Source: a virus (lineage: Duplodnaviria > Caudoviricetes). From it: a stretch of 64,000 bases of DNA. The position numbers were made by a program, and so were the translations under genes. Under the pieces are notes generated by a model that searched no databases, had not been told where the DNA came from, and saw only the letters and a program-made list of their open reading frames with translations. Position 1 is the stretch's first letter. Every line of letters begins with the position of its first letter. Positions 5,952-25,760 of this stretch are shown here, piece by piece. The DNA lies in IMG/VR virus record IMGVR_UViG_3300011616_000006, positions 32,001 to 96,000 of that record; one strand, given 5' to 3'.

Positions 5952-5980
5952 AGTGAAATCCTCCTTGTTTTTGGTAGTCA

Positions 5981-6010
5981 CATATTCGCTCTAAAGCTGT
6001 GAAATAGCAA
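5981..6010 (-). promoter_or_regulatory. Repeated promoter-like motif, copy 2
   Basis: TTGCTA-17 nt-GAATAT. Confidence 0.65.
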
Positions 6011-6041
6011 GGAATTTCGCTATAAAACATCTACCTAATTA

Positions 6042-9210: not shown

Positions 9211-9213
9211 AAT

Positions 9214-9789
9214 CTATCGCCCCTTTCTTCCGGAGAGCAGTGCCTCCATAATGTCATCCTGCGGGTTTCCTGTGAAAGCCGTGGTGCAGTTTTGTTTTAC
9301 GATATCAAATATTTCATACCAGATAAGATTTGCCTGTTTCTGAAACGACTGGCTCATCTGTACAAAAGGACTTGCAATCGCACCGCCTGTCGTTGGGTGC
9401 TTGCCAAGCAGACCGTAAATGCTGATAGCCTCCTCGCACTGAATGTAACGAGTGAAAGCCTGTGCGTAGGATTCTATCAATCGGGGATTGACAAACTTCT
9501 CACAGCCACGCTCCTTCAGCCATTTCCATGTTTCGATGTACAGTGCATCCGCTCCCAGCGGTTTGCCGTCCTTTTGTCTGGAACTGAGATAATCACTCGG
9601 TGATGGCATATCCTCACCTGGCATATCCGATTCCACTTCCAAGTCCGGAGCCTCCAGCACCGTTTCCTGTGGCATGGTGACTTCCAGCACTTTTGCCGCC
9701 TTTCCGTTTGCAATCTTATCCGCTAGAGGTAGCGGTTTATCCCCGGCTCGCACACGGCGACCGCCTCTGTTCGTTCCGTCTTTCGCCAT
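9214..9789 (-). CDS. P27-family terminase small subunit
   Basis: MAKDGTNRGGRR N-terminus; downstream of HNH. Confidence 0.85.
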   Translation of the reverse strand: MAKDGTNRGGRRVRAGDKPLPLADKIANGKAAKVLEVTMPQETVLEAPDLEVESDMPGEDMPSPSDYLSSRQKDGKPLGADALYIETWKWLKERGCEKFVNPRLIESYAQAFTRYIQCEEAISIYGLLGKHPTTGGAIASPFVQMSQSFQKQANLIWYEIFDIVKQNCTTAFTGNPQDDIMEALLSGRKGR

Positions 9790-9799
9790 ATGCCTCACC

Positions 9800-9920
9800 T
9801 CCGTTTATATGGCAGGGGGTTAATACCCCGTTTGAACTGGAATTTTTTCGCGCGTGACCCCATGCCCGTTCCACGGCCGAAAGGCTGTAGAGATTCAGAC
9901 CGCCCCTCCCGGTCAGAGAG
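9800..9920. other. Probable cos/packaging region
   Basis: GC-rich intergenic region between HNH and TerS, the usual cos position in HNH-TerS phages; cut site not identified. Confidence 0.45.
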
Positions 9921-9924
9921 AAAA

Positions 9925-10284
9925 TCATTTCCTGCTCCAGCGACCACCTTCACGAGCGGTGATCTCGGAATGGCAGGAGGTACAAAGGCTCATGAGATTA
10001 TGAAAATCATGAGTGCCGCCTTGGGATAACGGCTTGATGTGGTGTACTTCTTCGGTGGGTGTCATCTTCCCGTTCTTCTCGCACTGCTCACACAGCGGAT
10101 GCAGAGCAACGTAGCGGTCACGGATTCTTTTCCACGACCTGCCGTACCGTTTCTTGGTGGCAGGGTCACGTTGATACTTTTCGTATCGTTTGGCTTCTTG
10201 TTTCTCATGCTCCTCACAGAATCTGCCGTGGGACAGCTTGGGACAGCCGGGATGAGAGCATGGTGTCTTTGGTTTGTATGGCAT
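9925..10284 (-). CDS. Packaging-associated HNH endonuclease
   Basis: CEQC...EVHHIKPLSQGGTH...NLMSLCTSCH. Confidence 0.93.
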   Translation of the reverse strand: MPYKPKTPCSHPGCPKLSHGRFCEEHEKQEAKRYEKYQRDPATKKRYGRSWKRIRDRYVALHPLCEQCEKNGKMTPTEEVHHIKPLSQGGTHDFHNLMSLCTSCHSEITAREGGRWSRK

Positions 10285-10416
10285 CTGAATCACCTCCGTG
10301 GCAAACCAAAAGCCCTCAGAGCGTGTTGCTCCAAAGGCTTCCGTTGTTTTTATAGTTTTTGATATTACTATCATACCACGTCCAATTGCAAAAATCGTCC
10401 GTGATTTTGGACATCA

Positions 10417-10875
10417 TCACTTACCATACAACAGGGTGGTCAAATGCTCCAATGCACGATTTTTCTTTTTGTAGGCGGAAGTCCGTTCAATGTGATAGCG
10501 GTCACAGATATTACCAACGGCATCAATCTGCTTGCCATCATCGTTTAAATAAAACTCCGACAACACAAACTGTTCATCATCTGTCAACGCATCCCAAGCA
10601 GGGCGAAACCACTCCATGTACTCCAAGGCACGGCGGTAACGTTCTTTGAGTACGTCAATCTCATCAAGAGATGATGCCAGCCTCGTTTCTGTAGCATGAG
10701 GGTCTTTCTGTCTTGGTAATCCTGTGGGAACACCAGATGGTAATGCCATCATACTGTCACGCATATCTGCAACATCCTCTTTGTAGTTCTGTATGATATA
10801 CTCCATGCTGGAGTAATCTTTCAGCGCATCAATCGCGGCTGTCTTTTTGTCTAAATATATCCAAGCTATCGTCAT
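10417..10875 (-). CDS. Probable late-gene activator (RinA/ArpU-like)
   Basis: C-terminal sigma-4-like HTH; position just before the packaging operon. Confidence 0.65.
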   Translation of the reverse strand: MTIAWIYLDKKTAAIDALKDYSSMEYIIQNYKEDVADMRDSMMALPSGVPTGLPRQKDPHATETRLASSLDEIDVLKERYRRALEYMEWFRPAWDALTDDEQFVLSEFYLNDDGKQIDAVGNICDRYHIERTSAYKKKNRALEHLTTLLYGK

Positions 10876-11164
10876 AAGCTTTTACCTCCAAGGAATCAAG
10901 AATAGACTTCACTTCCTCGACACTGGTAACCTTGCAGGCTTCGCCCTTCGCAGCTTTAATTTTCGTAATCGTTATTTCTTGCAGCTTCGTCAGCCTCCCA
11001 GATGGCGTCTTTACTTCAAACGCTACGAACCTGCCGTGGTAACAGCAGATAATATCCGGGATGCCGGCTGTACCGTACATACCGCCATGCTCTTTCCAAG
11101 CAAAGCACATGGGTACAGTCTTTAAGTACCGCATAATTGCGGTGACAATGTCTTTTTCAATCAT
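10829..11164 (-). CDS. VRR-NUC nuclease
   Basis: GIPDII...FEVK...TKLQ PD-(D/E)xK motif. Confidence 0.9.
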   Translation of the reverse strand: MIEKDIVTAIMRYLKTVPMCFAWKEHGGMYGTAGIPDIICCYHGRFVAFEVKTPSGRLTKLQEITITKIKAAKGEACKVTSVEEVKSILDSLEVKAYDDSLDIFRQKDSRD

Positions 11165-11180
11165 GGTACACCTCACGTTC

Positions 11181-11322
11181 CTTACGGAATTACGGATTTG
11201 ACGAGTACATATATTTCTTTTTTAATATAGCGGATTTTCTCATAAATCCCTCTTTATCCTCACACTCTGGACTATGCGTGTAAAGAAAATGAGAAACCCG
11301 TCAATTCCGTCATTGCGTCAAA
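11181..11322. repeat. Putative replication origin: inverted iteron triplets around an AT-rich core
   Basis: TTACGGAATTACGGATTTGACG versus inverted TTGACGCAATGACGGAATTGACG, directly after the primase-helicase. Confidence 0.55.
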
Positions 11323-11327
11323 CTGAA

Positions 11328-13817
11328 TCATTGTTCCAACCGGATTCCTTTCCAAGTCCGGCGCTTGCCGAGCCGATCCACACCACGCTTAATATCGGGG
11401 TATGCCAACTCGAGGTCTTTGTTAAAATTCTTCTGTGATACCGGCGATAATCCAGCATTGTTGCAATATTCCTTGTACTTCATGAATAACTCGGTTCGCT
11501 CTGTTTCACCATCGGGGGTCATTTCACAGCTTTCCTCCACAAAAGATAAAACACTGTTGCTGTCAATGCGGTAACGCTGAAGTTCCGCTCTGGTACTTTC
11601 TGTTTCACTGAAATGAAAGCGATTTTGAATAAGCCTCTTCAATCCTTCCACAGCGAACATAAAAATACCGTCTGCTTCGGCAGCGAACTTGTCAAGAAGT
11701 GCCGCATCCTGTTTTTCTGTTGGCACAGGCTTAGAGAATCGGATAATAATGAGCCTGCGGTAAAATCCTTCAGATTTATCGCCATAGTTCCGAGGGATTG
11801 AGTTGCACGAAAATAACAGCCTTGCATACGGCTGAAAAGTGAATGGGTCTTTGTTCTTCCTCTCTGCCGTCAGAAAATCCTCGCCGACCAATGCCTTAAA
11901 TATGCCGTTGTCATCAATGTTCTTGGTCGGAAGGTCAGCGAAAATATTCGCCAATTTCCCAAACAACTCCGCCGTCTTAAATCGCTCATTTAGGTTCTGC
12001 CACGGAATATTGCTCACGTTCTGCTGCCCCAATAAAATCTCATTCAAAGTCAATAGCAGCTTAGATTTACCCGCTCCGGGTTCTCCCACAATCACAAAGG
12101 ATTTCTGTGCCTTATTCACGGGAATGAGAAAATAGCCAAGCATTTCCTGCACCAGAGGAATTTCTGCTTCGTTCAGCGATTCGGTCAGAAACTGCCTAAA
12201 GCGAGGACAATCAGCATTCGGCGTGTAATTGACATTTAGCTGTACGGTTGATAAATATTCCGGGGTATGCGGTGCAAAGCTGTCATTCAGGACATTGTAC
12301 AATCCATTCTTGACGTTGAGGATATACGGATTGCTGTTGAGTTCTCTCAAAGGCTTAATAATTAGCATCCTCCACTGACCGTCTGCATCCACAATATTTC
12401 CAAGCGTTGTGTACCTCGAAAGCAAACGAGAGCGTACAAGAGATTTTGCCTCCAAGTCAGAGACCTCCCTGTACACACCATCCCTGTAAACGTAATACTG
12501 CTCGGCGCTGTAAAATGCCTGCACCTCTTTTCCCATATGCTCCGCCAACACGCCCGGCAGGAACTTGACACCTCCTCGATCCGTTAATTCGTACCAATCA
12601 GGAAGTTCATATCCACTAGCCTCACGCTTAGTTTCCTTGCTCTCTGAAAATTTCTTGTAGGCATCCTTGTGAAAAGAAATCAGCGGTTTCACGTCACCCG
12701 TCTTAAAATTAAAACGTGCCTTGATTTCATAATTGATAAATGGCTCGGCAATAACAGGCTCAATGTTGTAAAGATAAGCCGATATGAAGTCCTTTGCGGT
12801 CTGTATATTTTCAAGCGGCATCTCCTGCACGTCTTTCTCCTGTAGAAAAACACGAAGGTCAGCAATATCCAATGCCTTGTAACAAAGAGCGGCAGGTGAC
12901 TTACAATTGCACGAACCGTCCTCCATCTTTGGGCATTTAAAGCCAAACTCGGCAATCTTACTGCAAGTCATCGGCTTCGTACCGGACGATAGAAAATGAT
13001 TAATCTTATCCTGCGTTTCTGCTCTGCTGTATTTTGGGTATGGCTTGGAGAGTGCATGAATCGCACTCTCTCCACTATCAAATACTGCAAGGTTTGTAAT
13101 CATCGCATACCACTGATTTTCAGGGAGCGTCTTTCCATTGTCCTTACAATGCTGAATAAAGGAACAACGCCTGCCGACCAATGATAAGCCTTTTCTTGCA
13201 CCTTTAGGCACAGGTGCTTTTATCTGCTGTTCATCGGGAATCTGAGGCAGATGGACCTCCAACTCCGCTTGAGTGTATCTCAGTTCCGGATTAAACTTGA
13301 TGCATTCCACCATAACAGGCTCGGCTTTGCAGTGATTAAATCCGGGTAATCGGAACACACGGCTCTCATTGATGCAAGCCGAATCACCGTTAAACTGTGA
13401 CACAAGACGCTTCTGTACTCGGCGGAAATCCTCTAGCTTTGCATCTTTCACCAGCCAGTAGCAATGCAACGATTTCTTGGTACGGACAATCATAGACGGC
13501 GGCAGCGGAAATGCCTCAATCTGTGCCATCTGCTCTTCAAGAGATAAACTGTCGCACTCCACAAATTGGGCATTAATTCTTGTAATATCTGCATCTTCAT
13601 GACCACCGAAATTGATAACAAAATAAATCCCTCGGTTCTGCTGATTGTGTTTCTTCAGCGTATCTACCATGCCTGCAATCTTCCCAGCGGCACACTCTAA
13701 TTTCGCACCCTTAAAAGCACCTGTCTTACGGTCATCAAATACCCTTAAGCAAACAGTTTCACTTGGGTCAAAGAACGGGCGCAGAAACTCTTCTAGCGGT
13801 ATGGATAAAGGCTTCAT
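11328..13817 (-). CDS. Primase-helicase (RepB-like primase plus P4/D5 SF3 helicase)
   Basis: FVECD, SLHCYW and RVFRLPG primase motifs; Walker A GEPGAGKS; FSCN; FYRRL. Confidence 0.92.
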   Translation of the reverse strand: MKPLSIPLEEFLRPFFDPSETVCLRVFDDRKTGAFKGAKLECAAGKIAGMVDTLKKHNQQNRGIYFVINFGGHEDADITRINAQFVECDSLSLEEQMAQIEAFPLPPSMIVRTKKSLHCYWLVKDAKLEDFRRVQKRLVSQFNGDSACINESRVFRLPGFNHCKAEPVMVECIKFNPELRYTQAELEVHLPQIPDEQQIKAPVPKGARKGLSLVGRRCSFIQHCKDNGKTLPENQWYAMITNLAVFDSGESAIHALSKPYPKYSRAETQDKINHFLSSGTKPMTCSKIAEFGFKCPKMEDGSCNCKSPAALCYKALDIADLRVFLQEKDVQEMPLENIQTAKDFISAYLYNIEPVIAEPFINYEIKARFNFKTGDVKPLISFHKDAYKKFSESKETKREASGYELPDWYELTDRGGVKFLPGVLAEHMGKEVQAFYSAEQYYVYRDGVYREVSDLEAKSLVRSRLLSRYTTLGNIVDADGQWRMLIIKPLRELNSNPYILNVKNGLYNVLNDSFAPHTPEYLSTVQLNVNYTPNADCPRFRQFLTESLNEAEIPLVQEMLGYFLIPVNKAQKSFVIVGEPGAGKSKLLLTLNEILLGQQNVSNIPWQNLNERFKTAELFGKLANIFADLPTKNIDDNGIFKALVGEDFLTAERKNKDPFTFQPYARLLFSCNSIPRNYGDKSEGFYRRLIIIRFSKPVPTEKQDAALLDKFAAEADGIFMFAVEGLKRLIQNRFHFSETESTRAELQRYRIDSNSVLSFVEESCEMTPDGETERTELFMKYKEYCNNAGLSPVSQKNFNKDLELAYPDIKRGVDRLGKRRTWKGIRLEQ

Positions 13818-14236
13818 GGCATCAACTCCTCACATTTATCACTAAAATATCGAATTGGTATTCCTCGCTTTTTTGCTTTTGCAATCTCGGTCTGCATACC
13901 GCTAGAAATCTCCGAACCAAACACCCATAACTGGTCACACTTGCCCATAATCACTAATCCAAAGAAAATGCCGATGCTACGCTGTGCCTTGTCACTGTCA
14001 TCCAAAATCTGCGGATACAAAAGATGTGGGGCAAAGGGGATCGCTCCTTGCTTCACAGCAAACCTTGAATAGTGTCGGGCATTTTCAAGATTCTGCTCTA
14101 CATCACCGGCAAACGGTGAGCAGATGAATACCAGTGGTCGATATTCCTTTTGCTTTTCTTCACGGGTTACTTTTGATAATGCTTCATAGGTGGTCGGGTC
14201 ATAATAACCCTCGCTGTTGTATTTATTTACACCCAT
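13814..14236 (-). CDS. DUF4406/nucleoside deoxyribosyltransferase-like protein
   Basis: VFICSPFAG...APHL...CDQLWVFG..SSGM..EI. Confidence 0.75.
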   Translation of the reverse strand: MGVNKYNSEGYYDPTTYEALSKVTREEKQKEYRPLVFICSPFAGDVEQNLENARHYSRFAVKQGAIPFAPHLLYPQILDDSDKAQRSIGIFFGLVIMGKCDQLWVFGSEISSGMQTEIAKAKKRGIPIRYFSDKCEELMP

Positions 14237-14238
14237 AA

Positions 14239-16164
14239 TCACTCCTCCATCTCTTTCATATTTCCAAATCTTGTGCCAACTGCTGCCTCTGCGATAACCG
14301 GAACATCAAACTCGGCAAAGGGCTGTGATTCCATACAAGATTTTACAAAGTCTATTGTTTCTGACACCTTACTCTCTGGTAGCTCAAACACCAATTCATC
14401 ATGAATCTGCAGGAGCGGCCTAAGCCATGGTCGGTCAGGCAATCCGATAAGAATTCTGCCAAGTGCTAGTTTCAAAATGTCCGCTGCCGTTCCCTGAATT
14501 GGTGTATTTAATGCACATCTCTCGGCAAAGGACTTCTTTCCCCAATCAGTCGATGCAATATTGGGTAAATAACGTCTCCTGCCAAGCCAAGTTTCAGTGT
14601 ATCTGCGAAAGCCTGCTTGCTGCTTGGTTTCCTCCTGCCAACGGGTCAGTTCGGAATATCCAGCCTTGAGATTATTGATGATTCGTTCGCACTCAGCCAG
14701 TGATGTCGGCAGCCCTGCCTTGAACTTCAGCGTTCTCTGCAGTCCTTTGGGGAACAGACCGAAGAATGTGCCGAAGTTGCAGTTCTTGGCGATGGTACGG
14801 CGCTCTTTGTAATCGGGAGCATCCTTATCCACCGCCTGTTCAAAAGGAATATGATAAATAACCGCTGTGGTTCGGGCATGAATATCACCACCGGAGCGGT
14901 AAGTCTCCAGCATTTTTTCATCCCTGCAGTAAAATGCACCCACTCGCAGTTCAATCTGCGAAAAGTCCAGTGACAATAAAACCTTGCCCTCCGGTGCAAT
15001 AAAGAAGTTACGGATACCAACCTCATCCGCTCCGGCACGGGGCATATTTTGCAGATTAGGATTCCTCGCTGCGAATCTTCCCGTTTCTGTTGTCAATGGC
15101 ATAAGGTCTGGGTGTATGCGGCCGGTAGCAGAATTTAGATATCCTAAATATCCGTCAATATATGTGGACTTGATTTTACCCCATCGGCGATATTCCTGAA
15201 CTAGCTTGAACAGCGGCATATACTCCGGCTTGTTTTCTTCGCACCATTCAGAGAGCAGAACCATCACTTCATCGTCCATTGCTTCTTGGAACTTTGCTGT
15301 GGTCTTAAAAACAGGCAGCTTTAAATCGTTGTATAAATATTTCTTAAAAGCAGCGGTGCTGGCATTCGCCCCGATATTTACATCACCTATGATAAATGCA
15401 ATATCTTCACGCAACTTCGCCAGATGTTCTTCAGCCTCGGTCTGTTTCTCTCGCATTAAGATTTCATCAGCAAGTAAGCCATTGTATTTCATGATGCCGA
15501 CATACACCGCCGTGGGTGATTCGATTTGCTCTACAATAAAACGATGCTTTGGCAGAAAACGGTCAAACCAGTTATTAAACAAATGATACAATTGCAAAGC
15601 ATAATCAGAGTCGGCACAGGCATAGCGAATTGTTTCTGTGTCCTGCGGATCGAGTTCATCAAAGGAACTGCCACCTGTAACCTCGCCAAAAGACGGCAGT
15701 TCCACACCAAGCAGTTCTGGCACTAAAGTTTTCAGACCGCTGTCACCCAGAGTACGGAAAGCAGTATTGCTTTTCAGTGTTAGCTGTGATGCGGCAATCG
15801 TATCGTAAACAGGTGACTGCACCACAATCCCTCTTGCATAGAGGAACATGGACTCAAAACTGAGATTGTGCGCTATCTTGATGATGTTGATACTCTGGAA
15901 AATCTCATTCATAAGCCATTGCCAGATTTCTTCCTGATTGATGGCATTCTGTCCAATTCGGTGTGTCAGCGGGACATATACTCCCGTACCTTCAGCAACC
16001 GAAAAGCTAATGCCGACAATATGAGATTTATGTGCATCAAGTGCCGCCTTTGGTTCTTCACGATATGCTTCATCTGGTGCAGTTTCAAAGTCGAAAGCAA
16101 CTGGGGAAGCCCCAGACAAATATGTCTGAAGCCCCGCCAGTGCTGTTACACAGCGATATCCCAT
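14239..16164 (-). CDS. Family A DNA polymerase with 3'-5' exonuclease
   Basis: FDFET exonuclease I, DFSQIELR motif A, R..AK..NFG motif B, QIHDEL motif C. Confidence 0.96.
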   Translation of the reverse strand: MGYRCVTALAGLQTYLSGASPVAFDFETAPDEAYREEPKAALDAHKSHIVGISFSVAEGTGVYVPLTHRIGQNAINQEEIWQWLMNEIFQSINIIKIAHNLSFESMFLYARGIVVQSPVYDTIAASQLTLKSNTAFRTLGDSGLKTLVPELLGVELPSFGEVTGGSSFDELDPQDTETIRYACADSDYALQLYHLFNNWFDRFLPKHRFIVEQIESPTAVYVGIMKYNGLLADEILMREKQTEAEEHLAKLREDIAFIIGDVNIGANASTAAFKKYLYNDLKLPVFKTTAKFQEAMDDEVMVLLSEWCEENKPEYMPLFKLVQEYRRWGKIKSTYIDGYLGYLNSATGRIHPDLMPLTTETGRFAARNPNLQNMPRAGADEVGIRNFFIAPEGKVLLSLDFSQIELRVGAFYCRDEKMLETYRSGGDIHARTTAVIYHIPFEQAVDKDAPDYKERRTIAKNCNFGTFFGLFPKGLQRTLKFKAGLPTSLAECERIINNLKAGYSELTRWQEETKQQAGFRRYTETWLGRRRYLPNIASTDWGKKSFAERCALNTPIQGTAADILKLALGRILIGLPDRPWLRPLLQIHDELVFELPESKVSETIDFVKSCMESQPFAEFDVPVIAEAAVGTRFGNMKEMEE

Positions 16165-16952
16165 TAGTGACCTCCTTGTAACGGCTCAATAATCTCGCCA
16201 GTTTCGGGGTCAATATTTTCCATTGGCATTTCATCCATTTCCTCTACACTGTCATAATCGAACGCCACATTTTTGCTGAATTCCTTGACCTGCTCACTCA
16301 TTTTATTGATAAGGGCAAACTCATCTGCTGTAAGCGGACGGTCGACAGCGAACTGTGCCTGTGAATAGGCAAGACCGCCACTGTTGGTGGCTTTCTTCAG
16401 AGAAAAGCGAGTGACCACACTGTTGGACTTTCTACCTTTGCCGAGCAAGCGTTTAATATATTTGGTGAACTCCTTTAACGAACCAGTCGGCAGGGAAAGC
16501 AATAACGGGAAAATCTCACCTTCACGGAGCAGATAAATCCTGCGGCGGTTCTTACACGCTTTGGAATTGTTCTCGCCAGAGCCGAACTGATTGTATGGAC
16601 ACTTCTTGCAGTTCCCGCCGGGATCACCCTCACCGACAACACCGTCAAAACTGCCGCAGTCAGGTGGATTATTGCCGCCAGTGTATTTCTCTTTGTAATA
16701 AGCCATCAGCGGATGATGGAACAATATCACTGCACTAAATTCCTTAACGCTTTCTGCCTCAGCTGGGTCTTCGCCGGGAACCTCATATACCGTACTGCCT
16801 GCTGACGGAATCTTAATACGCTCGAAACTCATATCTAATCCGTCAAGCTCCTCGGCCATCATTGCCGCCATATCCACGTTCGCTAACCCTGTATATCCGC
16901 TCTCCTGCGGTACCAATGCCTGTTCATTTTTTGATTCATTCTTCTTAGCCAT
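16164..16952 (-). CDS. Phage replication protein, likely ssDNA-binding
   Basis: Position before PolA; Cys cluster; acidic tail DPETGEII. Confidence 0.55.
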   Translation of the reverse strand: MAKKNESKNEQALVPQESGYTGLANVDMAAMMAEELDGLDMSFERIKIPSAGSTVYEVPGEDPAEAESVKEFSAVILFHHPLMAYYKEKYTGGNNPPDCGSFDGVVGEGDPGGNCKKCPYNQFGSGENNSKACKNRRRIYLLREGEIFPLLLSLPTGSLKEFTKYIKRLLGKGRKSNSVVTRFSLKKATNSGGLAYSQAQFAVDRPLTADEFALINKMSEQVKEFSKNVAFDYDSVEEMDEMPMENIDPETGEIIEPLQGGH

Positions 16953-16977
16953 AATCTAAAACCTCCATAAATTTGAT

Positions 16978-17391
16978 TTATTTTGCTTTACGCACTCCAA
17001 CCGTTGTCTTCTCAAATACATTTACTAAGCCGTTCAGCCAATCTGGTAATACATCCTCGTTCTCACCAATTTGCTCCTTGACAAACGAAGATAGAGAATT
17101 GGCATTGACGGTTTCATACACCAAATCGCCATAACCTTGCTCACGAAGAGCTGCATACAGTTCCTCCTTGGAACCGGCGACTGCCGAAGCACGGGTCTTG
17201 GTAGTCAGACAGAACATCGTGCCGGAGCGAGTGAAATTCTGTGTTTCCGTTTCTGCCATAAGCTCTGAAAGACGATAATCCGTCTCATCAATCTGAGCAT
17301 TAATTTCCTTAAGCTGTGCCTCTGCCTCTGATTTGTCATCACGCAGGCTCTTCAGCTTTTCAGCCAGTACAAACATTTTTTCGTTATCCAT
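16978..17391 (-). CDS. Hypothetical phage protein (coiled-coil N-terminus)
   Basis: SD present; in operon. Confidence 0.75.
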   Translation of the reverse strand: MDNEKMFVLAEKLKSLRDDKSEAEAQLKEINAQIDETDYRLSELMAETETQNFTRSGTMFCLTTKTRASAVAGSKEELYAALREQGYGDLVYETVNANSLSSFVKEQIGENEDVLPDWLNGLVNVFEKTTVGVRKAK

Positions 17392-17400
17392 AAATATCAA

Positions 17401-18870
17401 TCATCCTTTCAATGAAAATGGGTTTTGTCCTCGCCGATAGTCATCTACCAGCGTTCTTGCTAAATCTGCCTTAGAGCGGAGTGCCTCTAGCACCTTTTCA
17501 TCCACTGTGCCTTTTGCCACAAGATAAATGTAGGTGCAGTTTTCTTTCTGTCCAACACGATGAATTCGTGCCTTTGCCTGTTCAAAGTTGCTCATGCTGT
17601 AATCCTCAGAATAAAATACCATGGTGCTTGCAGCAGTCAGAGTAATACCAAGTCCTGCCGTGGCAATCTGCCCGATAAAAACTTGTGTGTTCGGGTCATT
17701 CTGAAATGCTGTAACCTGCTCTTCACGGTCTTTGACACCGCCCATGATGCAGGAATAACCGATGCCGCATTTTTCAAGCAACTTGCTGATAGCGTTGATT
17801 TCCGCTACAAACCGAGCAATAATTACCAGCTTTTTTTCTTCCTGCAGAACTTGCTCTACAATATCCTCCAGTGCCGACAACTTTGCTGTGCTGATTCGCT
17901 GCGGAGCATTACCCTCATCATCGCCGATAAAACCGCCTGTAAGCTGCGATAGGCGAAGTAGGCGAGTAAGAACATTTGTGACAGTAACTTCACTCTTACC
18001 AAGCTCTGCATAGGATTCCTTTACCAAGTCGTTATACACTCTTGCGGCGGCAGGCTCTAAATCCACATAGCGAATGATATCTGTCATCTCTGGCAGGTCA
18101 AGGCATTCCGCCTTTGTTGCCCTGAAAGCGATGCAGTGCAGACGTTTCATCAATTCCTGCTCCATGTTTTTCTTCATTACTGGTGTGTGATTGCCATAAC
18201 CAGTCATGTCAAAGTAACGGTTTCGGAAGGAATAAAAGCTGTTACCGAAGATAGCCGGGTTCACGAATTTGTACTGCGAAAACACATCGATTGCTTTGTT
18301 CGTGATAACCGTTCCAGTAAGCAGCAATCGGTAGCCTGCCTTTGCACCAATTCGGTGCATTGCTTTGGATGCTGAGATATTATGAGTCTTGATTTTGTGT
18401 CCTTCATCAGCAATGATGAGATTGGGATTCCAAGCAGTAATCTCTTTTTCTAATCGCCATGCCGATTCATAATTGACCACTGCCACCTGCAGTGGTGGGT
18501 AATCCATACACTTAAGTTCTTCAGCCTTCTTTGCTCCGCTGCCACTTAATACCGATAGGGAATACTTGAAATCTGCAAACTTCTGAAATTCCTCATCCCA
18601 AACACCAACAATTGAAAGCGGAGCAACTACCAGTACCCGGCGGATTTTGCCGGACTGATACAATGCACCAGTAATCGCAATGCTGGTAATGGTCTTGCCG
18701 GTACCCATTTCCATGAGCAGTGCTACTCCTTGACTTCGTGCCTCGTGTTCGCCCAAACCAAACTGCCTGCAGGCAAAAGCAAACGCCTCCCTCTGATGCC
18801 GATACGGCGATGCCTTAATCGGCATGGGCGGATACGAGTTGTTTTCCTGCATCTTCTTTTGCACCTCCAC
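17401..18870 (-). CDS. SNF2-family helicase
   Basis: MEMGTGKT, DEGH, LLTGT, QAKARIHRVGQ. Confidence 0.95.
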   Translation of the reverse strand: MEVQKKMQENNSYPPMPIKASPYRHQREAFAFACRQFGLGEHEARSQGVALLMEMGTGKTITSIAITGALYQSGKIRRVLVVAPLSIVGVWDEEFQKFADFKYSLSVLSGSGAKKAEELKCMDYPPLQVAVVNYESAWRLEKEITAWNPNLIIADEGHKIKTHNISASKAMHRIGAKAGYRLLLTGTVITNKAIDVFSQYKFVNPAIFGNSFYSFRNRYFDMTGYGNHTPVMKKNMEQELMKRLHCIAFRATKAECLDLPEMTDIIRYVDLEPAAARVYNDLVKESYAELGKSEVTVTNVLTRLLRLSQLTGGFIGDDEGNAPQRISTAKLSALEDIVEQVLQEEKKLVIIARFVAEINAISKLLEKCGIGYSCIMGGVKDREEQVTAFQNDPNTQVFIGQIATAGLGITLTAASTMVFYSEDYSMSNFEQAKARIHRVGQKENCTYIYLVAKGTVDEKVLEALRSKADLARTLVDDYRRGQNPFSLKG

Positions 18871-19009
18871 TTTCTGCTGACCTCTGCTCTAACAGAATCA
18901 GCTTTTTTGCCAGCCGCTTTGACACCAGACTGATTGCCGTAAGTACACCGACAAGTTCTTCGGTAGTGTCAGCTTCATGAGTCAAAGCAGCAGTTGATTT
19001 TTTCTCCAT
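18815..19009 (-). CDS. Hypothetical protein
   Basis: GAGGTG SD; first gene after the sigma-like factor. Confidence 0.6.
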   Translation of the reverse strand: MEKKSTAALTHEADTTEELVGVLTAISLVSKRLAKKLILLEQRSAESGGAKEDAGKQLVSAHAD

Positions 19010-19098
19010 TGATTTCACCTCTTTCTGAGGGATAAAAATACCCCCTCACTCTATAAGGAAAGTAAGGGGGCAGGCGGCAACCCTAATTCAAAAACTTT

Positions 19099-19500
19099 TT
19101 ATGAATTGAGTAGCTTTTTAAGTTTTTCTAATATTCGAACTTTCTTTTTATGTACCGCTTGGTGAGATATGCCCTTTTGATTAGCCACTTCACGCTCTGA
19201 CTTTTCTTGATAAAACAAGGCATCTATCAGACTGCGCTCATCCGCTGTTAATTCATCTAAAGCAGTTAAAAGAATATCCAACAACAGCTTGTCCTCTACA
19301 ATTTCATCAACCAGTTTCTGATTTGTGTCAGCTTGTCCATCAAAATCGTTCTCAAGCATGAAATCGTAAGAACATTCCCTTGTAGCTCTCACAACATCTT
19401 GTTTCTCTTCTCGCCACTCGGCACGTTTATATGTACGATACACTTCTTCAGTCACTGGTATCTCTTTGCCGTCAAGCCAGATATACCACTTTTTACTCAT
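19099..19500 (-). CDS. Sigma-70 region-4 type factor (Tn916 Orf7-like)
   Basis: ALDELTADER...SEREVA...ISHQAVHKKK HTH. Confidence 0.85.
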   Translation of the reverse strand: MSKKWYIWLDGKEIPVTEEVYRTYKRAEWREEKQDVVRATRECSYDFMLENDFDGQADTNQKLVDEIVEDKLLLDILLTALDELTADERSLIDALFYQEKSEREVANQKGISHQAVHKKKVRILEKLKKLLNS

Positions 19501-19598
19501 TGCACTTCCTCCTTTCCTTGAAATTCAAAGAAAGGGGAAGAGGAGGTGCTCTCGCCCTAAAGAACGGGCGTTCGTCAGAAAATGATAAATTTCGCAAC

Positions 19599-19642
19599 AA
19601 AAAAAGCGTGGAGATAAACCTTTCGGCTAAGCTCCACGCTTT
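19599..19642 (-). terminator. Intrinsic terminator upstream of the sigma-like gene
   Basis: AAAGCGTGGAG...CTCCACGCTTTTTTT. Confidence 0.75.
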
Positions 19643-19860
19643 AAGTATTATTATGTAGTTGTTTGGTTCCTTTTGTTGCTTGAATAAACAACGCACGGCG
19701 GCCACCTCCTTGGTGCCGCCGTGCAAATGAGCGCAACAAATCATTTAAAATGACCTTATACGCACATCGCTATCTTATCTTTTTTATAGATAGACGGCGT
19801 CTCTTATTTTGATGAATACTAGTAATTTGATATTAGTAGTTAACAGGCTGTCACAAAGAC

Positions 19861-19906
19861 AAAAAGAGCCGATGTACCGTGATTTCTCACAAGTTCATCG
19901 GCTCTG
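19861..19906 (-). terminator. Intrinsic terminator after the KTR gene
   Basis: AGAGCCGATG...CATCGGCTCTTTTT. Confidence 0.7.
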
Positions 19907-20083
19907 CGTCTTAGCGTCTGGCTCTTTGATGACATTTATTTGTAAATCTTTAGCTTGTATTAAGCTCTCTTGTTTGCATTTCGGACAGTAAAGCGGAAAG
20001 TTCATCAGAACGGTATCCGCTCTAATCCTGTCACGGGTTTTACTGTTGCAAACAGGACACATTATCCATTTTACTTTTTCCAT
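19895..20083 (-). CDS. Cysteine-rich KTR domain protein
   Basis: CPVCNSKTR...NFPLYCPKCKQE. Confidence 0.9.
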   Translation of the reverse strand: MEKVKWIMCPVCNSKTRDRIRADTVLMNFPLYCPKCKQESLIQAKDLQINVIKEPDAKTQSR

Positions 20084-20174
20084 AGGCTTCACCTCTTTGT
20101 ACCATAACCACTCCATTCACCCAATCAATGGGGAGTAATTGCGACTTCAGATTATTATGGTCTTATATAATTAC

Positions 20175-20987
20175 TTAAAATAAACTATTTACTTCGTCTA
20201 TCAGATTTCTCAAATGATGACATGCTTCTAACAAATCAGTACCAATCAACGAAAAGATAATATTTATTTTTTCGTTGTAATTATCAGGATGAATTAGAAA
20301 CCTATCTATCATTTGTACAGCTTTTTTCTCATTGAGGCAGTATTGTTCATTTAGTGCAAAAAGCACTTGATTGAGTGCAGAAATAGAACGTACAAGGTGA
20401 GCTACCACATAATAAACATCGTTTCTTGAAACATTGTTTTCAGCAAACATTAGAGAAAAACCAGCTTCGAAAGAAAAGAAATGTATTATTGGTTCCTTCA
20501 AATTTTGTGGATACTCCTCTGCAATCTTTTTTAGTTCTTTTATTTCATCACTTTTACTCCACAGCAGTTTACAAATAGCAAGTTCACCCATATACATTAC
20601 ATTGAGATAGGCATGTGGATGCCCTGTTTGATAATGTGAAGTGACAATTCCTTCTCGGCAATCTTGAATAGATTTTTTCACTCGGCTTATATCCCGCAAA
20701 ATAAGGTCAATATGCACACTGTCAGTACTAAGCCAACATCCGCCATTCACCCATGCTCCCCACTCTCCGGGTCTTGCAAGTAGGTTTGGTCTATGCTCTT
20801 GGTCTAAAAATTGCATTCGTTCTTCTAACAAAGACAAGTCAAGCGTTCGTTTGTCGTAATACAATCCAATATCAATATCAGAGTCAGGATTGTGAGTACC
20901 CCTTGCACGTGATCCGCCAAGTACAATTGCCTCAAGTCCTTTTATGTCCTTTAATGAATTAACAATATTTTCAATAATACTTTTCAT
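20175..20987 (-). CDS. Pol-beta superfamily nucleotidyltransferase (DUF4037-like C-terminus)
   Basis: LGGSRARG...DSDIDIG signature. Confidence 0.88.
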   Translation of the reverse strand: MKSIIENIVNSLKDIKGLEAIVLGGSRARGTHNPDSDIDIGLYYDKRTLDLSLLEERMQFLDQEHRPNLLARPGEWGAWVNGGCWLSTDSVHIDLILRDISRVKKSIQDCREGIVTSHYQTGHPHAYLNVMYMGELAICKLLWSKSDEIKELKKIAEEYPQNLKEPIIHFFSFEAGFSLMFAENNVSRNDVYYVVAHLVRSISALNQVLFALNEQYCLNEKKAVQMIDRFLIHPDNYNEKINIIFSLIGTDLLEACHHLRNLIDEVNSLF

Positions 20988-21066
20988 TTTTCTCCTCTTC
21001 TAATAAAAATGTTAAATTGATTTATAGATTTGTCACTTCGGGAGGATTTGTCCCAAAGTGTCCCCT

Positions 21067-22530
21067 CTACTTCAATTTGTGTATTTTGCAATCCCGTATC
21101 TCATATACAATATCCGCCACATTATCAATTAACTTTTTATCATGCGAAACAAATAAAATTGTTCCTGCATAATTCTTAATCATACTTTCCAATGCTTCCA
21201 TACTAAAGATATCAAGATAATTAGCTGGTTCATCCATAAGCAAGATATTATACCGTCCTAACAACATTTTAGAAAGCAGTAGTTTAATTATTTCACCGCC
21301 AGATAATACAGATAGGTCTTTATTGATATCATTTTGTCTAAATCCCATTGATGCTAAGACCCCACGTATTTCTGATACTTGATAATCACAATCCTCTTGC
21401 ATAAAAGAAATAACAGATTGATTTGCTATAAACTGATATCCTGTTTGAGCAAAGTAGCCAATTACCGCCTTTGGTGAAATGGTAAGCATTTCGTTGTTGG
21501 ATAAAACCATCTTTAATAATGTGGTTTTACCCGTTCCATTACCTCCAGTCAAAGCGACTTTTGCACCAAGAGGAATATTAAAGCTGGCACTTTCAAATAT
21601 CACACGCTCTCCAAATTTCAAATTGATATTATCACCCACAACTGGAAATTTATTGTGTAATTCTAAGGCTTTACTTTGTCTGAAACGAATATTGACAATA
21701 CGTTCGGAGGCACTAAGATCCCCCATTTTCTCGATTTTGCGTTCCATGTTTAAGGCGGCATTATATATTTTTTTCTGTTTGCTACCAGTACTTTTCTGAT
21801 GTCCTAATCTGCCGGTACTTTCATTAGAATTTTTCTTCACAGTTCCTTTTTGTTTATTATCAATCTGTCGTGCTTGATTCCGTTTCTCTTCTGCTGCACG
21901 TTCTAATCGCTCACGTTCCTGTTTAATCTGTTCATATTGCTTAGCTTTCTGTTCACGTTCTACCTCTTTTTGATTAAGATAATCACTATACCCACCCCAA
22001 TATTCAGTAATTTTTCCGTCTTTTAGTTCCCATATTTTATCCACAACCTTATCCAAAAAATAACGGTCATGACTAATAATCAACAATGCCCCATCAAACG
22101 ATTTTAGATGTCCAATTAATAACTCTATTCCCGCACGGTCAAGATGGCAAGTTGGCTCATCTGCAAACAAAGCATGAACTTGCTTGGATAAAGCTATTGC
22201 AATTTTAGAGCGTGTTTCTTCACCTCCGCTCATAGTATCTTTCTGTAAGCCGGACACACCTAAGCGTGATAGCATAGCGGGGTCATAAGCTTCTTCTAAC
22301 ATAATACTTTCAAGTTGTTGTATATAAGCTATTTCTCCAAAACGCTGTATTTTACATTCCGACGGGGCAATTCCCCCAGCTAGAATATTTAAGAGAGTGC
22401 TTTTTCCTTCACCATTATTGCCGATTAAACCAATTCGGTCATATGAGTACAATTCTAGTTCATCAATATCTAAAACATCACGTCCTGTATATTCAACGCG
22501 GATGTCATTTGCTTTTATAATTAATTCCAT
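21067..22530 (-). CDS. msr: Msr-family ABC-F ribosomal protection protein (divergent; allele not assignable by eye)
   Basis: Two ABC domains ([26 protein letters not shown]), Msr-type linker, 487 aa, downstream of mef. Confidence 0.93.
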
Positions 22531-22650
22531 ATTTTCCTCCTATCACATTGCCATGCAGAATCAAACCCTTTTCTGTTTTGAAACAGGCCGTTCTGCAACT
22601 GCTGATTTTCCTACTACTGTAACGCTAATGATTAAAGATAATTTTTCTTA

Positions 22651-23856
22651 TTAATCCAATTTTCTGATTTCAGCAATCAAGGGACAAATTGCAGCAATGA
22701 TGATAACTAAAATACCTGATATGAGAAACCAAATATTCACACCGATTCTATCAGCAAAAAAACCGGAAAGGATTAAACCAATAGGCATAGCCAGTGACAC
22801 AACACTCCCTGTAAGAGAAAACACACGTCCTAAATATTCAGGTTTGATTTTTTCTTGAAAAAGGGCTGTTTGAACACCACTGTAAAACGGAACTGATAAA
22901 CCCATCATTGCACAACAAATTACGAAAATAATAAAGCCATTTTGGGGAAGCAATCCTGAAATAGTTAAACTTATTCCCATCATGAAAATAGATGCTGTTA
23001 TTAGCAAAACTCGTTTTTTTAATCTACCCAAAAGTCCTAATATCAGACCTCCTGCCAACATGCCAGAGGCGTATGCTATTTCGGTAATTGATATATGCAA
23101 CGGTGTACCCCCAAAATATTCCATGCTGATTAAAGGGTATAGTGCGTTAATTGGCATATAAACAAACATATATATAGTGCCAATAAGCAACAATGCAAAT
23201 AGTCCTTTATTTCCTTTCAGAGCAAGAAAGCCTTCTTTCATCTCTTTCATAAAGTTAAATTTCGCACTTTTTTGTTCTTTGTTAAGTTTGGGAATACGCA
23301 CAAATGCCACTGTGATACACGCAATAATCGCGCCTAAAATGTCCACGCCAATGATTGCATTTAATTCCCAAACAGAATATAAAAATGCCGCTACGGCAGG
23401 ACTGAGTATATAGCTTATTGACTGCAAGGATTGACTGTAACCTGCGCATTTCGTCAGCTGTTCTTCCGGCACTATAAGAGGTGTAGCCGCACTCAGTGCA
23501 GGAGAATGAAAAGCCGTTCCAAGGCTTCGGATAAACAACACTACCATAACCATCCAAACTGAAAGTTCCATATGCAAAGCAATAACAGATAGTACAGCGC
23601 CTGCTGTTGCAATAATCAAATCAGCACCAATCATTATCTTTTTTCTATCATAACGGTCAACTAATACCCCTATCATAGGTCCGAAAACAGCATATGGGAG
23701 AAATCCAACTAATGAAGCAATCGAAAGCACCATCGCCGAACCTGTTTTTTCTGTAAGGTAAAATATTAACGCCATTTGCAGAACAGCACTAGTAATCAGA
23801 GATACTGCCTGACCTGACCATATTGTAAAAAAAGTAAGTTTCCAATTCCTTTTCAT
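22651..23856 (-). CDS. mef: Mef-family macrolide efflux MFS transporter
   Basis: WSGQAVSLITSAVLQMALIFYLTEKTGSAMVLS; QTALFQEKIKPEYLGRVFSL, closely resembling Mef(A)/(E). Confidence 0.95.
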   Translation of the reverse strand: MKRNWKLTFFTIWSGQAVSLITSAVLQMALIFYLTEKTGSAMVLSIASLVGFLPYAVFGPMIGVLVDRYDRKKIMIGADLIIATAGAVLSVIALHMELSVWMVMVVLFIRSLGTAFHSPALSAATPLIVPEEQLTKCAGYSQSLQSISYILSPAVAAFLYSVWELNAIIGVDILGAIIACITVAFVRIPKLNKEQKSAKFNFMKEMKEGFLALKGNKGLFALLLIGTIYMFVYMPINALYPLISMEYFGGTPLHISITEIAYASGMLAGGLILGLLGRLKKRVLLITASIFMMGISLTISGLLPQNGFIIFVICCAMMGLSVPFYSGVQTALFQEKIKPEYLGRVFSLTGSVVSLAMPIGLILSGFFADRIGVNIWFLISGILVIIIAAICPLIAEIRKLD

Positions 23857-23922
23857 TTTCTATCGTCTCCTGTATTCATTATCTTGTTTTAAATTTATGT
23901 TATCAATGATAATGGAAGCAAT

Positions 23923-23962
23923 AAAAAAGCAGACCCAAGTCCACAATGTGACTCTGATCTGC
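23923..23962 (-). terminator. Attenuator terminator in the mef leader (distal to promoter)
   Basis: GCAGATCAGAGTC...GACTTGGGTCTGC-TTTTTT. Confidence 0.7.
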
Positions 23963-24056
23963 ATACATACAATATAGAAGCAGGCTAAAGAAAGGTATAG
24001 TCAAAATGACCATTCCTTACCGTAACTAATGCTCAATACTGCGAAAATACGCACAA

Positions 24057-24085
24057 CAAAAAAGCCTATCATCATGGATAGATTT
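24057..24085 (-). terminator. Attenuator terminator just after the leader peptide
   Basis: CTATC-CATGAT-GATAG-GCTTTTTT. Confidence 0.55.
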
Positions 24086-24103
24086 TACTTTTTTATTGCC
24101 CGA

Positions 24104-24130
24104 TTATCTCAAACGCATTGATGCTGTCAC
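24104..24130 (-). CDS. mefL: Macrolide-sensing leader peptide MTASMRLR
   Basis: GTG ACA GCA TCA ATG CGT TTG AGA TAA with GGAGG SD; same peptide as the known mef(E) leader, with the RLR arrest motif. Confidence 0.92.
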   Translation of the reverse strand: MTASMRLR

Positions 24131-24171
24131 GGTATTGTTTCCTCCTGAATCTTATTTTTTAATTATCGGTT

Positions 24172-24200
24172 ATTATATCATAAAAAGTTTGACCCGTCAA
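24172..24200 (-). promoter_or_regulatory. mef-msr operon promoter
   Basis: TTGACG-17 nt-TATAAT with extended TG. Confidence 0.85.
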
Positions 24201-24406
24201 CCTAAAACCGAACAAACAAGGATTTTTTGTCTGGATATCTAAATCGTCAAAGTAGAAAACATCATAAATTGTAAATATTGTCAAGAGTGACCTCGTTACA
24301 CTCGGCGACAAGCGCCCTTGATCATTGTTTTCTTTTTTAAATTTACGAAGCCTTTTTATTCCGCTCTCCTGTTTCCGAGAAAGAAATAAAGCAGGCACAA
24401 CAATAT

Positions 24407-24522
24407 CAGTGGATATGTTCCCTCACACAGGCAACCCCCAATTTCAACAGTGGATATATTCCCACACACTTCCAAGCCTTGAGTTGACTATATTTTTTAT
24501 CAGTAGATATGTTTCCGCACAA
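24407..24522 (+). repeat. Three 22-bp rlmD-att-like repeats, inverted relative to rlmD
   Basis: CAGTGGATATGTTCCCTCACAC (24407), CAGTGGATATATTCCCACACAC (24448), CAGTAGATATGTTTCCGCACAA (24501). Confidence 0.85.
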
Positions 24523-24523
24523 C

Positions 24524-24567
24524 AAAAAAAACGGCAAAACCAGTTTCATAACTAGTTTTGCCGTTTT
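24524..24567. terminator. Bidirectional intrinsic terminator downstream of rlmD
   Basis: AAAACGGCAAAAC...GTTTTGCCGTTTT with A and T runs on both sides. Confidence 0.8.
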
Positions 24568-24602
24568 CTCAATTTTCTCTAAACCCCCAGTAAATCAGCC
24601 TT

Positions 24603-25760
24603 TCAGCCGTTTTTCCTTGTCATCAAGACAACACTCTCAACATGCCCAGTATGCGGAAACATATCAACTCCCCAAGCCCCCTTAGCTCCATACCCCAACC
24701 TCTCAAACACCTTCAAATCCCGCGCCAACGCCTCCGGCCCACAAGAAATATAAACCACCTTCCGTGCCTTCACCGCTGCCACAGCCCTCATAAACTCCTC
24801 CGTACTACCACTCCGCGGCGGATCCATAAACACCACATCCAACGTCTCCCCCTGCTGCGCCATCTGATTCATAAACTTCCCGGCATCATTACAGAAGAAC
24901 TTAATATTCTTAACCCCATTAATCTTAGCATTACTATTAGCATCCTTGACCGCATCCTTATTCAGTTCAACGCTAATCACCTGCCCGGCCTTCTTACTGG
25001 CAATAATCCCAATTGTCCCGATCCCGCTATAAGCATCCAGCACAGTCTCTTTCCCGGTCAGCCCGGCCAACTCAATTGCCTTCTGATACAGTACCTCCGT
25101 CTGAACCGGATTCACCTGATAAAACGACTTCGACGATATCCGGAACCGGCAGCCGCACAACACATCCTCAATATATCCTTTCCCATACAGCACCTGCTCC
25201 CGATCCCCCAGCACCATACTCGTCACACGCCCGTTAACATTCTGAATCACGGTAGTAATCTCCGGATGTTTCTGCCGCAGCGCCTTCACAAAATTATTCT
25301 TCGACGGGAAAATCGGCGATGCCGTAACCAGCACCACCATGATCTCATTCGTAGCAAACCCACGCTTGACCAACACATGGCGCAAAAGCCCATATCCACT
25401 GTCCTCATCATAAGTACGAATCTTAAACGATTTCAGCATCCCGCGAATTGTACCGATAATCTCATCCGCCTTTTTATCCTCAATCTTACACTGCTCCACC
25501 GGCACCAGCTTATGCGTCCCGGCCTGATATACACCCGAGATCGCCTCGCCCTTACGGAAGCCAAACACTGCATGAACCTTATTCCGGTAATGATAAGGAT
25601 TGTCCATTCCGACAATCGGATATACCTTACAAAAACTCCCCAGCAGCTTCTGCATATTTGCCTGTTTCACTTTCAACTGTTCCTGATATGGCACATCCAG
25701 ATACTGACAGCTACCACACTGCTTAAATACCGGACATCCCCCATTCTTCTTTCCCGCCAT
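24603..25760 (-). CDS. rlmD: 23S rRNA (uracil-C5)-methyltransferase RlmD/RumA family, no TRAM domain; 3' tip probably phage-supplied
   Basis: C-x5-CGSC Fe-S motif, SFYQVN, DAYSGIG, DPPR, YISC, DMFPHT.HVE. Confidence 0.95.
   Translation of the reverse strand: MAGKKNGGCPVFKQCGSCQYLDVPYQEQLKVKQANMQKLLGSFCKVYPIVGMDNPYHYRNKVHAVFGFRKGEAISGVYQAGTHKLVPVEQCKIEDKKADEIIGTIRGMLKSFKIRTYDEDSGYGLLRHVLVKRGFATNEIMVVLVTASPIFPSKNNFVKALRQKHPEITTVIQNVNGRVTSMVLGDREQVLYGKGYIEDVLCGCRFRISSKSFYQVNPVQTEVLYQKAIELAGLTGKETVLDAYSGIGTIGIIASKKAGQVISVELNKDAVKDANSNAKINGVKNIKFFCNDAGKFMNQMAQQGETLDVVFMDPPRSGSTEEFMRAVAAVKARKVVYISCGPEALARDLKVFERLGYGAKGAWGVDMFPHTGHVESVVLMTRKNG

Follow-up and report, generated by a model that had tools for sequence, protein, structure and literature searches.

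An array of half-sites inside an rlmD-integrated prophage

A prophage integrated at the 3′ end of rlmD carries, just inside its own end, an array of three inverted mimics of the host half-site at which serine-recombinase elements of this kind integrate. This is as the earlier note had proposed, and we describe here the anatomy of the array, its location on element DNA, its conservation among related elements and its recurrence in mirrored form in other phages. The array lies in the window, by which we mean the whole 64,000-nucleotide stretch of DNA that was analysed (64 kb; G000:C22:11324-75323, reversed). On the sequence comparisons presented below, we see about an even chance that the copies function as accessory recombinase-docking half-sites of an extended attP. 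While the system of recombination is a standard one, the extended site is not described: we found no published description of such an array, the literature on serine-integrase accessory sites yielded no precedent for large serine recombinases, and attachment sites are not treated in the Heliusvirales paper.

Anatomy of the array

A scan with the pattern GTDGATATDTTYCCNCAYA gave exactly four matches in the window, three on the + strand and one on the − strand, compared with the 0.10 matches expected by shuffling; four or more matches occurred in none of 100 shuffles. The − strand match is the real motif of rlmD, which lies in the host part of a gene at 24603-25760 (−) that passes the RlmD equivalog model TIGR00479 (360.9 bits; cut-off, 183.6). 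The three + strand matches (c1, c2, and c3; Table 1) form the array and are inverted relative to the real motif, from which they are separated by a strong terminator, as had been noticed earlier; this terminator, with its stem of 20–21 bp, is predicted from its sequence to stop rlmD transcription ahead of the array. The number, inverted orientation and conceptual readings of the copies agreed with the earlier note, as did their start-to-start spacings of 41 and 53 nt, which were returned by a repeat finder that recovered the same repeat family as the pattern scan. The copy length of 22 bp given there needed correction, since the likeness of each copy to rlmD extends over about 24 nt, that is, over the full B arm from the start of the motif to the crossover, with none past that point. 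The match of 14 out of 14 positions between c3 and the real motif was confirmed as a run within an 18-nt inverted repeat of 94% identity. The array is not a coding repeat, since each of the three copies falls in a reading frame of its own.

The copies stand in tandem at 116, 169, and 210 bp inside the P′ arm, and all of them point to the crossover. The outermost copy, c1, has orthologues in L056, L055, L057, L060/61, L062, and L069, and its 5′ edge was adjoined by unrelated cargo in all elements examined. The most constant copy is c3, which is intact in 10 of 10 arrays and decayed only in the remnant L040; it matches the host arm at hypervariable positions in the window only, no such match being seen in the other elements. 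The 27 nt separating c2 from c3 (spacer motif M2) approximate the reverse complement of the real P arm of the element (G000:C22:104580-104613), with TGAGTTGA and the ..TCAG end in common and about 17 of 25 bases matching by hand count. Taken as a unit, c2 and M2 consist of a B-type arm, two bases and a P-type arm, resembling a hybrid att site that has one more base, in its middle, than a real one; judged by its sequence, this c2-based site probably cannot recombine. In L057 and L029, the M2-like (P-like) piece lies in the opposite orientation.

Table 1. Features of the rlmD-proximal prophage end, with the recombinase genes of the element
Feature	Position	Strand	Evidence or remark
rlmD, host part (RumA-type 23S rRNA U1939 methyltransferase)	24645..25760	-	Pfam and TIGR00479
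Host B arm of attL, with the real rlmD motif	24645..24668	-	arm comparison
Real rlmD motif	24650-24668	-	within the host B arm
Crossover dinucleotide CA (attL), inferred	24643..24644	-	divergence point of L060/L061; same junction at attR
Surrogate RlmD C-terminus, element-encoded, ..VESVVLMTRKNG then stop; also P′ arm	24603..24642	-	homology with other elements begins here
Intrinsic terminator, strong, 20–21-bp stem	24526..24569	.	z = -4.97; U8 on the rlmD strand
c3, 24-nt B-arm mimic, adjoins terminator	24503..24526	+	VDMFPHN
c3, motif match	24503-24521	+	VDMFPHN
M2, P-arm-like spacer motif, contains TGAGTTGAC	24476..24502	+	compared across seven arrays
c2, 24-nt B-arm mimic	24450..24473	+	VDIFPHT
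c2, motif match	24450-24468	+	VDIFPHT
c1, 24-nt B-arm (host-side) mimic, outermost	24409..24432	+	reads VDMFPHTG
c1, motif match	24409-24427	+	VDMFPHT
mef(A)	22651-23856	-	760 bits; curated cut-off, 675
msr-family ABC-F	21067-22530	-	712 bits; cut-off, 680
Prophage, near 24.6 kb of ~53.9 kb	1..24642	-	gene content; recombinases and attR beyond window position 1, same contig
Recombinase, 540 aa	L008:15447-17069		PF00239, PF07508, PF13408
Recombinase, 521 aa	L008:17845-19410		PF00239, PF07508, PF13408

Attachment sites and gene content of the prophage

Both junctions of the element were mapped. attL (B-CA-P′, at window 24643/24644) reads ..GGG-CA-TGTTGAGAG.., and attR (P-CA-B′, at G000:C22:104613/4) reads ..CTCACCG-CA-TGTTGAAACC.. 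and leads into the native tail: the native rlmD end, HVETVVLLERKGQ then stop, is found at C22:104614 on the same contig, preceded by a non-rlmD arm ending in ..TCAACTCACCG. The distance between the two sites gives a prophage of about 53.9 kb. Since both junctions could be mapped, the array is element DNA and not host DNA; the element contributes the last 13 codons of the present rlmD, the terminator and the three copies, and the B arm with the real motif is host DNA. L061 (attL form, with an rlmD-like gene) and L060 (attP form, with a P-type arm) represent the same element and diverge exactly at CATG. The P arm and core at the attR of L065 and L067, two related prophages with the same recombinase trio, are the same as here. 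The exchange was thus a conservative one at a short core that produced hybrid attL and attR sites without target duplication, and integration took place inside the 3′ end of rlmD, with a replacement C-terminus supplied by the element.

P′ and B′ are identical at 20 of 28 bases (71%; hand count on the printed arms), so that attL looks like attB. The inner motifs of the P and P′ arms form inverted repeats; in L058, L059, and the window's element, three to four direct repeats of the P-arm motif are found on the P side of attP. Same-genus orthologues of the gene read FPAT or FPMT, and we had considered that its FPHT codons were phage-supplied; the finding of attR ruled this out, placing the crossover 3′ of GGG and indicating that these codons are host-derived. 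attR was not found directly past the recombinase genes; a defence-like cargo block intervenes, and the site lies about 10 kb away from them. No contig with an attP or attB junction was found in this assembly. At least four RumA-type genes with the motif are present in the genome.

Everything left of rlmD in the window belongs to the phi-m46.1-like prophage. Its rlmD-proximal end carries the mef(A)-msr module, and a nucleotidyltransferase gene is also part of this resistance region. The mef promoter lies at 24200-24172. Upstream of mef, a stretch of 332 bp shows a match of 71–75% to the mef(A) leaders of phi-m46.1 and its relatives and also matches the Rfam entry sRNA_1300. The window also holds early or replication genes (sigma-like, SNF2 helicase, family-A polymerase [PolA], and D5-type primase) and late genes (TerS, two methylases, TerL, and portal), and the contig continues past it with tail, holin, and amidase genes and then two large serine recombinases. 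Both the 540-aa and the 521-aa protein have the resolvase catalytic, recombinase, and zinc-ribbon domains of this class. A 275-aa paralogue encoded between them has the recombinase and zinc-ribbon domains without the catalytic domain. This paralogue (P0001), which forms a conserved family, was considered as a binder of the array; it was not found in four of five array-bearing genomes, and the link was dropped.

Distribution of the array among related elements

When 400 genomes of the order were searched by BLAST with the 256-bp region, matches were obtained in G089 (82% identity, all three copies), G038, G192, and G051. A copy-blind pattern, in which the terminator and the 3′UTR alone served as the search anchor, led to six genome contigs and two metagenome contigs, and one more array was found in a Mobilisporobacter MAG. 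The total came to 10 distinct arrays, whose elements belong to several clostridial orders, and one decayed remnant (L040), on contigs labelled as Lachnospirales, Anaerovoracaceae, Oscillospiraceae, Eubacteriales, Mobilisporobacter, and Anaerosporobacter; three copies are present in six arrays, two in two, and one in two. Seven arrays are joined to rlmD-type genes, whose B arms have little in common past GAT.TGTT. Five are joined to the conserved P arm, which is the attP state of a circle or tandem copy (L058, L059, L060, and L069; L029 less clearly). Exact-pattern scans of IMG/VR, for two adjacent copies or for the terminator-3′UTR anchor, gave no matches.

The earlier note had named as arguments against its reading an absence of the array from related elements, combined with a lack of binding by the integrase, and a presence at the empty host locus. 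The array does occur in related elements, and a look at rlmD in relatives that lack the element revealed none: at 11 same-genus loci of this kind, no inverted copies occurred within 600 nt of rlmD. Synteny downstream of rlmD is not conserved in relatives and was therefore unusable for locating the empty site.

The conserved module consists of the array, the terminator and the surrogate rlmD tail and spans about 250 bp. In no case is the DNA to the left of the outermost copy related; this unrelated DNA begins at the copy edge (the exact edge of c1 in five elements). The cargo there differs by element: the window has mef/msr, L058 has a blaI-blaR1-PBP2a-like operon, and other elements have acetyltransferase, TetR, or radical-SAM genes. 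Apart from the module, the available flanks of the relatives showed no homology to the prophage of the window, suggesting that the ~250-bp module travels as a unit. The module is found at the ends of elements from gut and digester anaerobes whose resistance cargo is of the macrolide type, the beta-lactam type, or others, and it bears on how such cargo is kept in hosts or moved between them.

Sequence constraint on the copies

The per-position information of 21 array copies correlated with that of 21 real rlmD motifs (r = 0.80), with second codon positions conserved and third positions free (permutation p = 0.02). Across seven arrays of the same layout, the mean pairwise identity at core positions was 0.97 for c3, 0.88 for c2, and 0.60 for c1, with 0.93 for c2 and c3 taken together; it was 0.35–0.60 at the free positions of the copies and 0.43–0.46 in the plain spacers. 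Neighbouring non-coding blocks are about as conserved as the copies (M2 spacer, 0.78; terminator, 0.82; 3′UTR, 0.84), so part of the conservation of the copies could be hitch-hiking; two of these blocks, the terminator and the 3′UTR, had served as search anchors, and the sequences compared are mutually related. The spacing of the array is conserved as well, at 41 nt (51 nt in two arrays) and 53–54 nt between copies and 134–138 nt from c3 to the core.

The variation in copy number from one to three, the weak conservation of c1 and the decay of L040 indicate that at least c1 and c2 are dispensable. The CC of the FP codons is missing from the real B arms of some elements and is kept by nearly all array copies, which makes the copies more canonical than binding strictly needs. 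The library of half-sites from different hosts that the earlier note had offered is an assumption that is not needed, because a recombinase reading nothing but the invariant bases of rlmD would, by selection, also give rise to codon-like variation.

Mirrored layout in other phages

A profile search of IMG/VR with the 275-aa paralogue, a query to which ordinary serine integrases also respond through their recombinase domain, returned 73 loci. At seven of these, which have other serine recombinases, two to three copies of the motif are found on the P side in direct orientation, at 64/114, 65/105/134, or 55/94 nt upstream of the junction between the P arm, CA, and the HVE tail; the background density of the motif is 0.18 per kb. 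An eighth locus (L100), with a weaker score, has copies at 142/198 nt. In both layouts, on the P side as on the P′ side in the window, the motif points to the crossover like a real B arm, as the dyad symmetry of the recombinase complex would allow. With 10.5 bp per turn, the offsets from the core half-site come close to whole numbers of helical turns (p = 0.0007), a phasing that is suggestive only, since it vanishes at 10.3 or 10.7 bp per turn (p 0.2).

Possible roles of the copies

Among the functions listed in the earlier note, that of accessory sites fits the evidence best. A sequence in which no more than the invariant bases of the rlmD target are kept would most economically be read by the protein that has to find this target, the integrase, and we infer that the recombinase binds the copies and that this binding has an effect. 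Each copy would mimic the full 24-nt B arm that the large serine recombinase of the element must recognise in every host. Extra recombinase subunits could then dock on these half-sites, giving rise to a higher-order complex on attP, or on attL once the element is integrated. Such a complex might make binding more stable at a P′ arm whose sequence is constrained by its coding for the replacement C-terminus of RlmD; alternatively, the copies might supply B-type coiled-coil partners that tune synapsis and directionality. A broader proposal, which we make tentatively and rate somewhat short of an even chance, is that a widespread rlmD-targeting group possesses an extended attP in which two to three phased target half-sites, on either side of the core and pointing to it, recruit integrase subunits that set efficiency or direction. 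This would be the first arm-site system of large serine integrases.

We consider it unlikely, if deserving of serious weight, that the copies are fossil att sites, that is, functionless relics of old recombination (old hybrid sites) kept by linkage to the tail-terminator module. The hybrid-site anatomy of the c2 unit is what such relics would show, and copy number varies, with some copies decayed. L055 and L057 have the same 16-mers at swapped array positions, indicating that copies do get reshuffled; tandem accretion and small remnants are also seen at rlmD-type sites (C52 of this genome, the far end of phi-m46.1, and L125). However, serine recombination is conservative and oriented and neither duplicates nor inverts a B arm, and every copy is trimmed to exactly 24 nt without further rlmD sequence. 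The "scars of serial integration" of the earlier note fit poorly for the same reason, as conservative serine recombination leaves no inverted, exactly half-site-long copies. Moreover, core positions stay 0.93 identical while adjacent ones drift to 0.43–0.56, and the same kind of array arose or persists in mirrored form in other phage lineages, which speaks against chance relics.

That the copies are landing pads, secondary targets within the element for cargo modules or hitch-hikers with rlmD-specific recombinases, appears improbable. Such pads would account for the change of cargo from element to element and for its border, which coincides exactly with the outer edge of the outermost copy. 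The copies are, however, half-sites without a B′ partner, and the cargo lies on the outer side of the arm rather than at the crossover; in the window, the other border of the cargo showed neither a matching half-site nor a P-arm motif, and the units follow each other at 41–53 nt with no cassettes between them.

We regard as quite improbable a role as decoys or in immunity, in which the half-sites would titrate away the recombinase brought in by competing elements, or by other copies of the element itself, and so protect an attB-like attL. The surrogate tail does mimic the native one, giving attL its likeness to attB, tandem insertions at rlmD do occur, and the several RumA-type genes with the motif in the genome (at least four) accord with this role, but three half-sites make a small sink, and the P-side arrays come to lie at attR, away from the attB-like attL. 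Hardly credible is an element acting at the RNA level, where a read-through transcript or small RNA with the copies would pair with the rlmD motif: the copies are complementary to the motif on the rlmD strand and a weak promoter-like site lies at 24484-24513 (+ strand), but a strong terminator separates rlmD from the copies, a + strand transcript has the same sense as the motif, the P-side copies are oriented otherwise relative to rlmD, and the terminator is the sole supported structure, with no covariation beyond it (covariation term, -0.88) and no Rfam family, which leaves the target-matching small RNA of the earlier note unsupported and gives no indication of a guide (bridge-type) RNA.

Comparison with known recombination systems

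The recombinases of the window's element resemble those of A118/LI, phiC31, Bxb1, TP901-1, and SPbeta (SprA) in their Resolvase, Recombinase, and Zn-ribbon domains, their 2-bp core and their hybrid attL and attR. Phage large serine integrases are described as needing two sites of about 40–50 bp and no accessory DNA (PMC12286644). In contrast, elements like that of the window retain one to three additional half-sites that resemble the target, all within about 230 bp of the core. If the copies are docking half-sites, their conservation suggests that this family departs from the minimal-site (~40–50 bp) picture. Genome engineering prizes large serine integrases on the understanding that one protein and two short sites are enough; this picture would be challenged by a natural family in which target-like half-sites are retained next to attP, and the extra half-sites could give a new handle on efficiency, directionality, or target choice.

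In lambda-family tyrosine integrases, the arm-type sites differ from the core sites and are read by a separate N-terminal domain, and in the phiRv1 serine integrase system the Xis sites x1-x4 are repeats bound by the excisionase. The array is similar to both in that short repeated motifs flank the attP core at fixed spacing within an attP of a few hundred bp. It differs in that the repeats copy the bacterial core half-site itself.

For the ICE_rumA group and streptococcal rumA elements, the target and the exchange of the gene end have been described, with no such repeats (PMC4701971). The window's element resembles phi-m46.1 (FM864213), its closest named relative, and ICE_rumA in its serine recombinase, its use of the 3′ end of a U1939 methyltransferase gene and the exchange of the C-terminal coding end. 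Another feature in common with the phi-m46.1 group is the position of mef(A) and an msr gene directly within the end next to rlmD, the mef upstream leader being 73% identical. In contrast, neither end of phi-m46.1 carries another match to its rum motif, even with up to 3 mismatches in 14 allowed, and target-motif repeats were thus not found to be a trait of that family. In the streptococcal rumA ICEs there is only one integrase, and attR lies within its gene (PMC4701971), whereas here there are two full recombinases together with the paralogue lacking the catalytic domain, and attR lies well outside the recombinase genes.

SCCmec and other SCC elements at rlmH (CcrAB/CcrC) likewise combine a serine recombinase, the 3′ end of an rRNA methyltransferase gene and resistance cargo. 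Their repeats are direct and full-site, each bounding a cassette, whereas those of the array are inverted half-sites 41–53 nt apart with no genes between them, and the array is therefore not of the SCC type. As in SCC, L058 carries a mecI/mecR1/PBP2a-like operon beside its array. The best NCBIfam matches of the window's recombinases were Ccr models, with scores far under the cut-off.

Sequence match between copy 3 and the host B arm

Alignment of copy 3 of the inverted array (window 24503-24521) with the real rlmD motif (24650-24668) in the host half of the attachment site, the B arm, revealed an uninterrupted 14/14 match that included the otherwise hypervariable bases 3' of TTTCC. A match to the current host's B arm at these hypervariable bases was found only in the window's element, and all three array copies, like the host, carried a His codon. 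The agreement between copy 3 and the host may reflect conversion between inverted repeats.

Repeats around the element-side half-site and attR

On the element side, the inner motif of the P arm (TCAACTCACC-like) occurred upstream of the crossover as three to four direct repeats spaced 33-62 nt apart. At the position where the window's element and the attP-form contigs L058 and L059 have these repeats, the array-bearing contig L060 carried a different repeat, CCCGCGAACGG, in two copies. The host gene 3' of rlmD opens with a near-copy of the rlmD motif (ATATGTTTCCG.TTACC), which lies in direct orientation about 100 nt past attR. Two distinct hosts have this near-copy, and it is probably a coincidence of coding sequence.

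Coordinates of features in the window's genome (G000) and related contigs
Feature	Location	Remarks
P-arm inner-motif direct repeats	G000:C22:104466-104613; also P sides of L058 and L059	
Near-copy of rlmD motif past attR	G000:C22:104720-104745; L065 17619	
275-aa recombinase paralogue	L008:17033-17860 = G000:C22:92356-93183	Between two full recombinase genes
Defence-like cargo, ~10 kb	G000:C22:94734-104613 (L008 19411 onward, L009)	Recombinase genes to attR
mec-type genes	L024/L058 1022-5475	BlaI/MecI-type repressor, BlaR1/MecR1-type sensor, PBP with MecA_N domain
Tyrosine integrase	Window 30940-32199	In second prophage-like region

Recombinase genes and cargo

The 275-aa paralogue contains recombinase and zinc-ribbon domains, lacks the catalytic domain and belongs to a conserved family of more than 30 clusters (255-294 aa). 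In related prophages, the short paralogue always lay within a trio, flanked by large serine recombinases, 3' of holin and amidase genes; it was not found in four of the five other array-carrying genomes. The defence-like block encodes HATPase_c_3, Z1 and DUF4420 proteins, and the related prophages L065 and L067 carry OLD-TOPRIM and UvrD (Gabija-like) and AbiE genes in the equivalent position.

In L058 (JAVBKL010000149.1), a Eubacteriales MAG contig, the array-terminator-tail module is bordered by the three mec-type genes. This arrangement resembles SCCmec: a serine-recombinase element that targets an rRNA methyltransferase and has mec-like cargo.

Remnants and tandem insertions

A further RumA-type paralogue (G000:C52:19564-19800) was followed, about 190 nt past its own tail, by a second tail-like sequence (..CGTAGTGTGCGTGGTG..) that resembles a very short relic left by an integrated element; a similarly doubled tail is present at the far end of phi-m46.1 (L011 6904 and 7020). 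In the viral contig L125, we also detected one P-arm|CA|tail junction at 17184 and the next at 20081, a distance of 2.9 kb, which is consistent with two elements having accreted in tandem at a single rlmD site.

Other regions of the window

An intergenic 75-140-nt sequence upstream of rlmD (25820-25960) had many ~80% copies throughout the window's genome and same-genus genomes; none of the Rfam families matched it at the gathering score, and it may represent a repeat dispersed in these genomes. Besides the tyrosine integrase, the second prophage-like region (30940-64000), which has a higher AT content (37% GC), encodes a cell-wall hydrolase together with an anaerobic ribonucleotide reductase.
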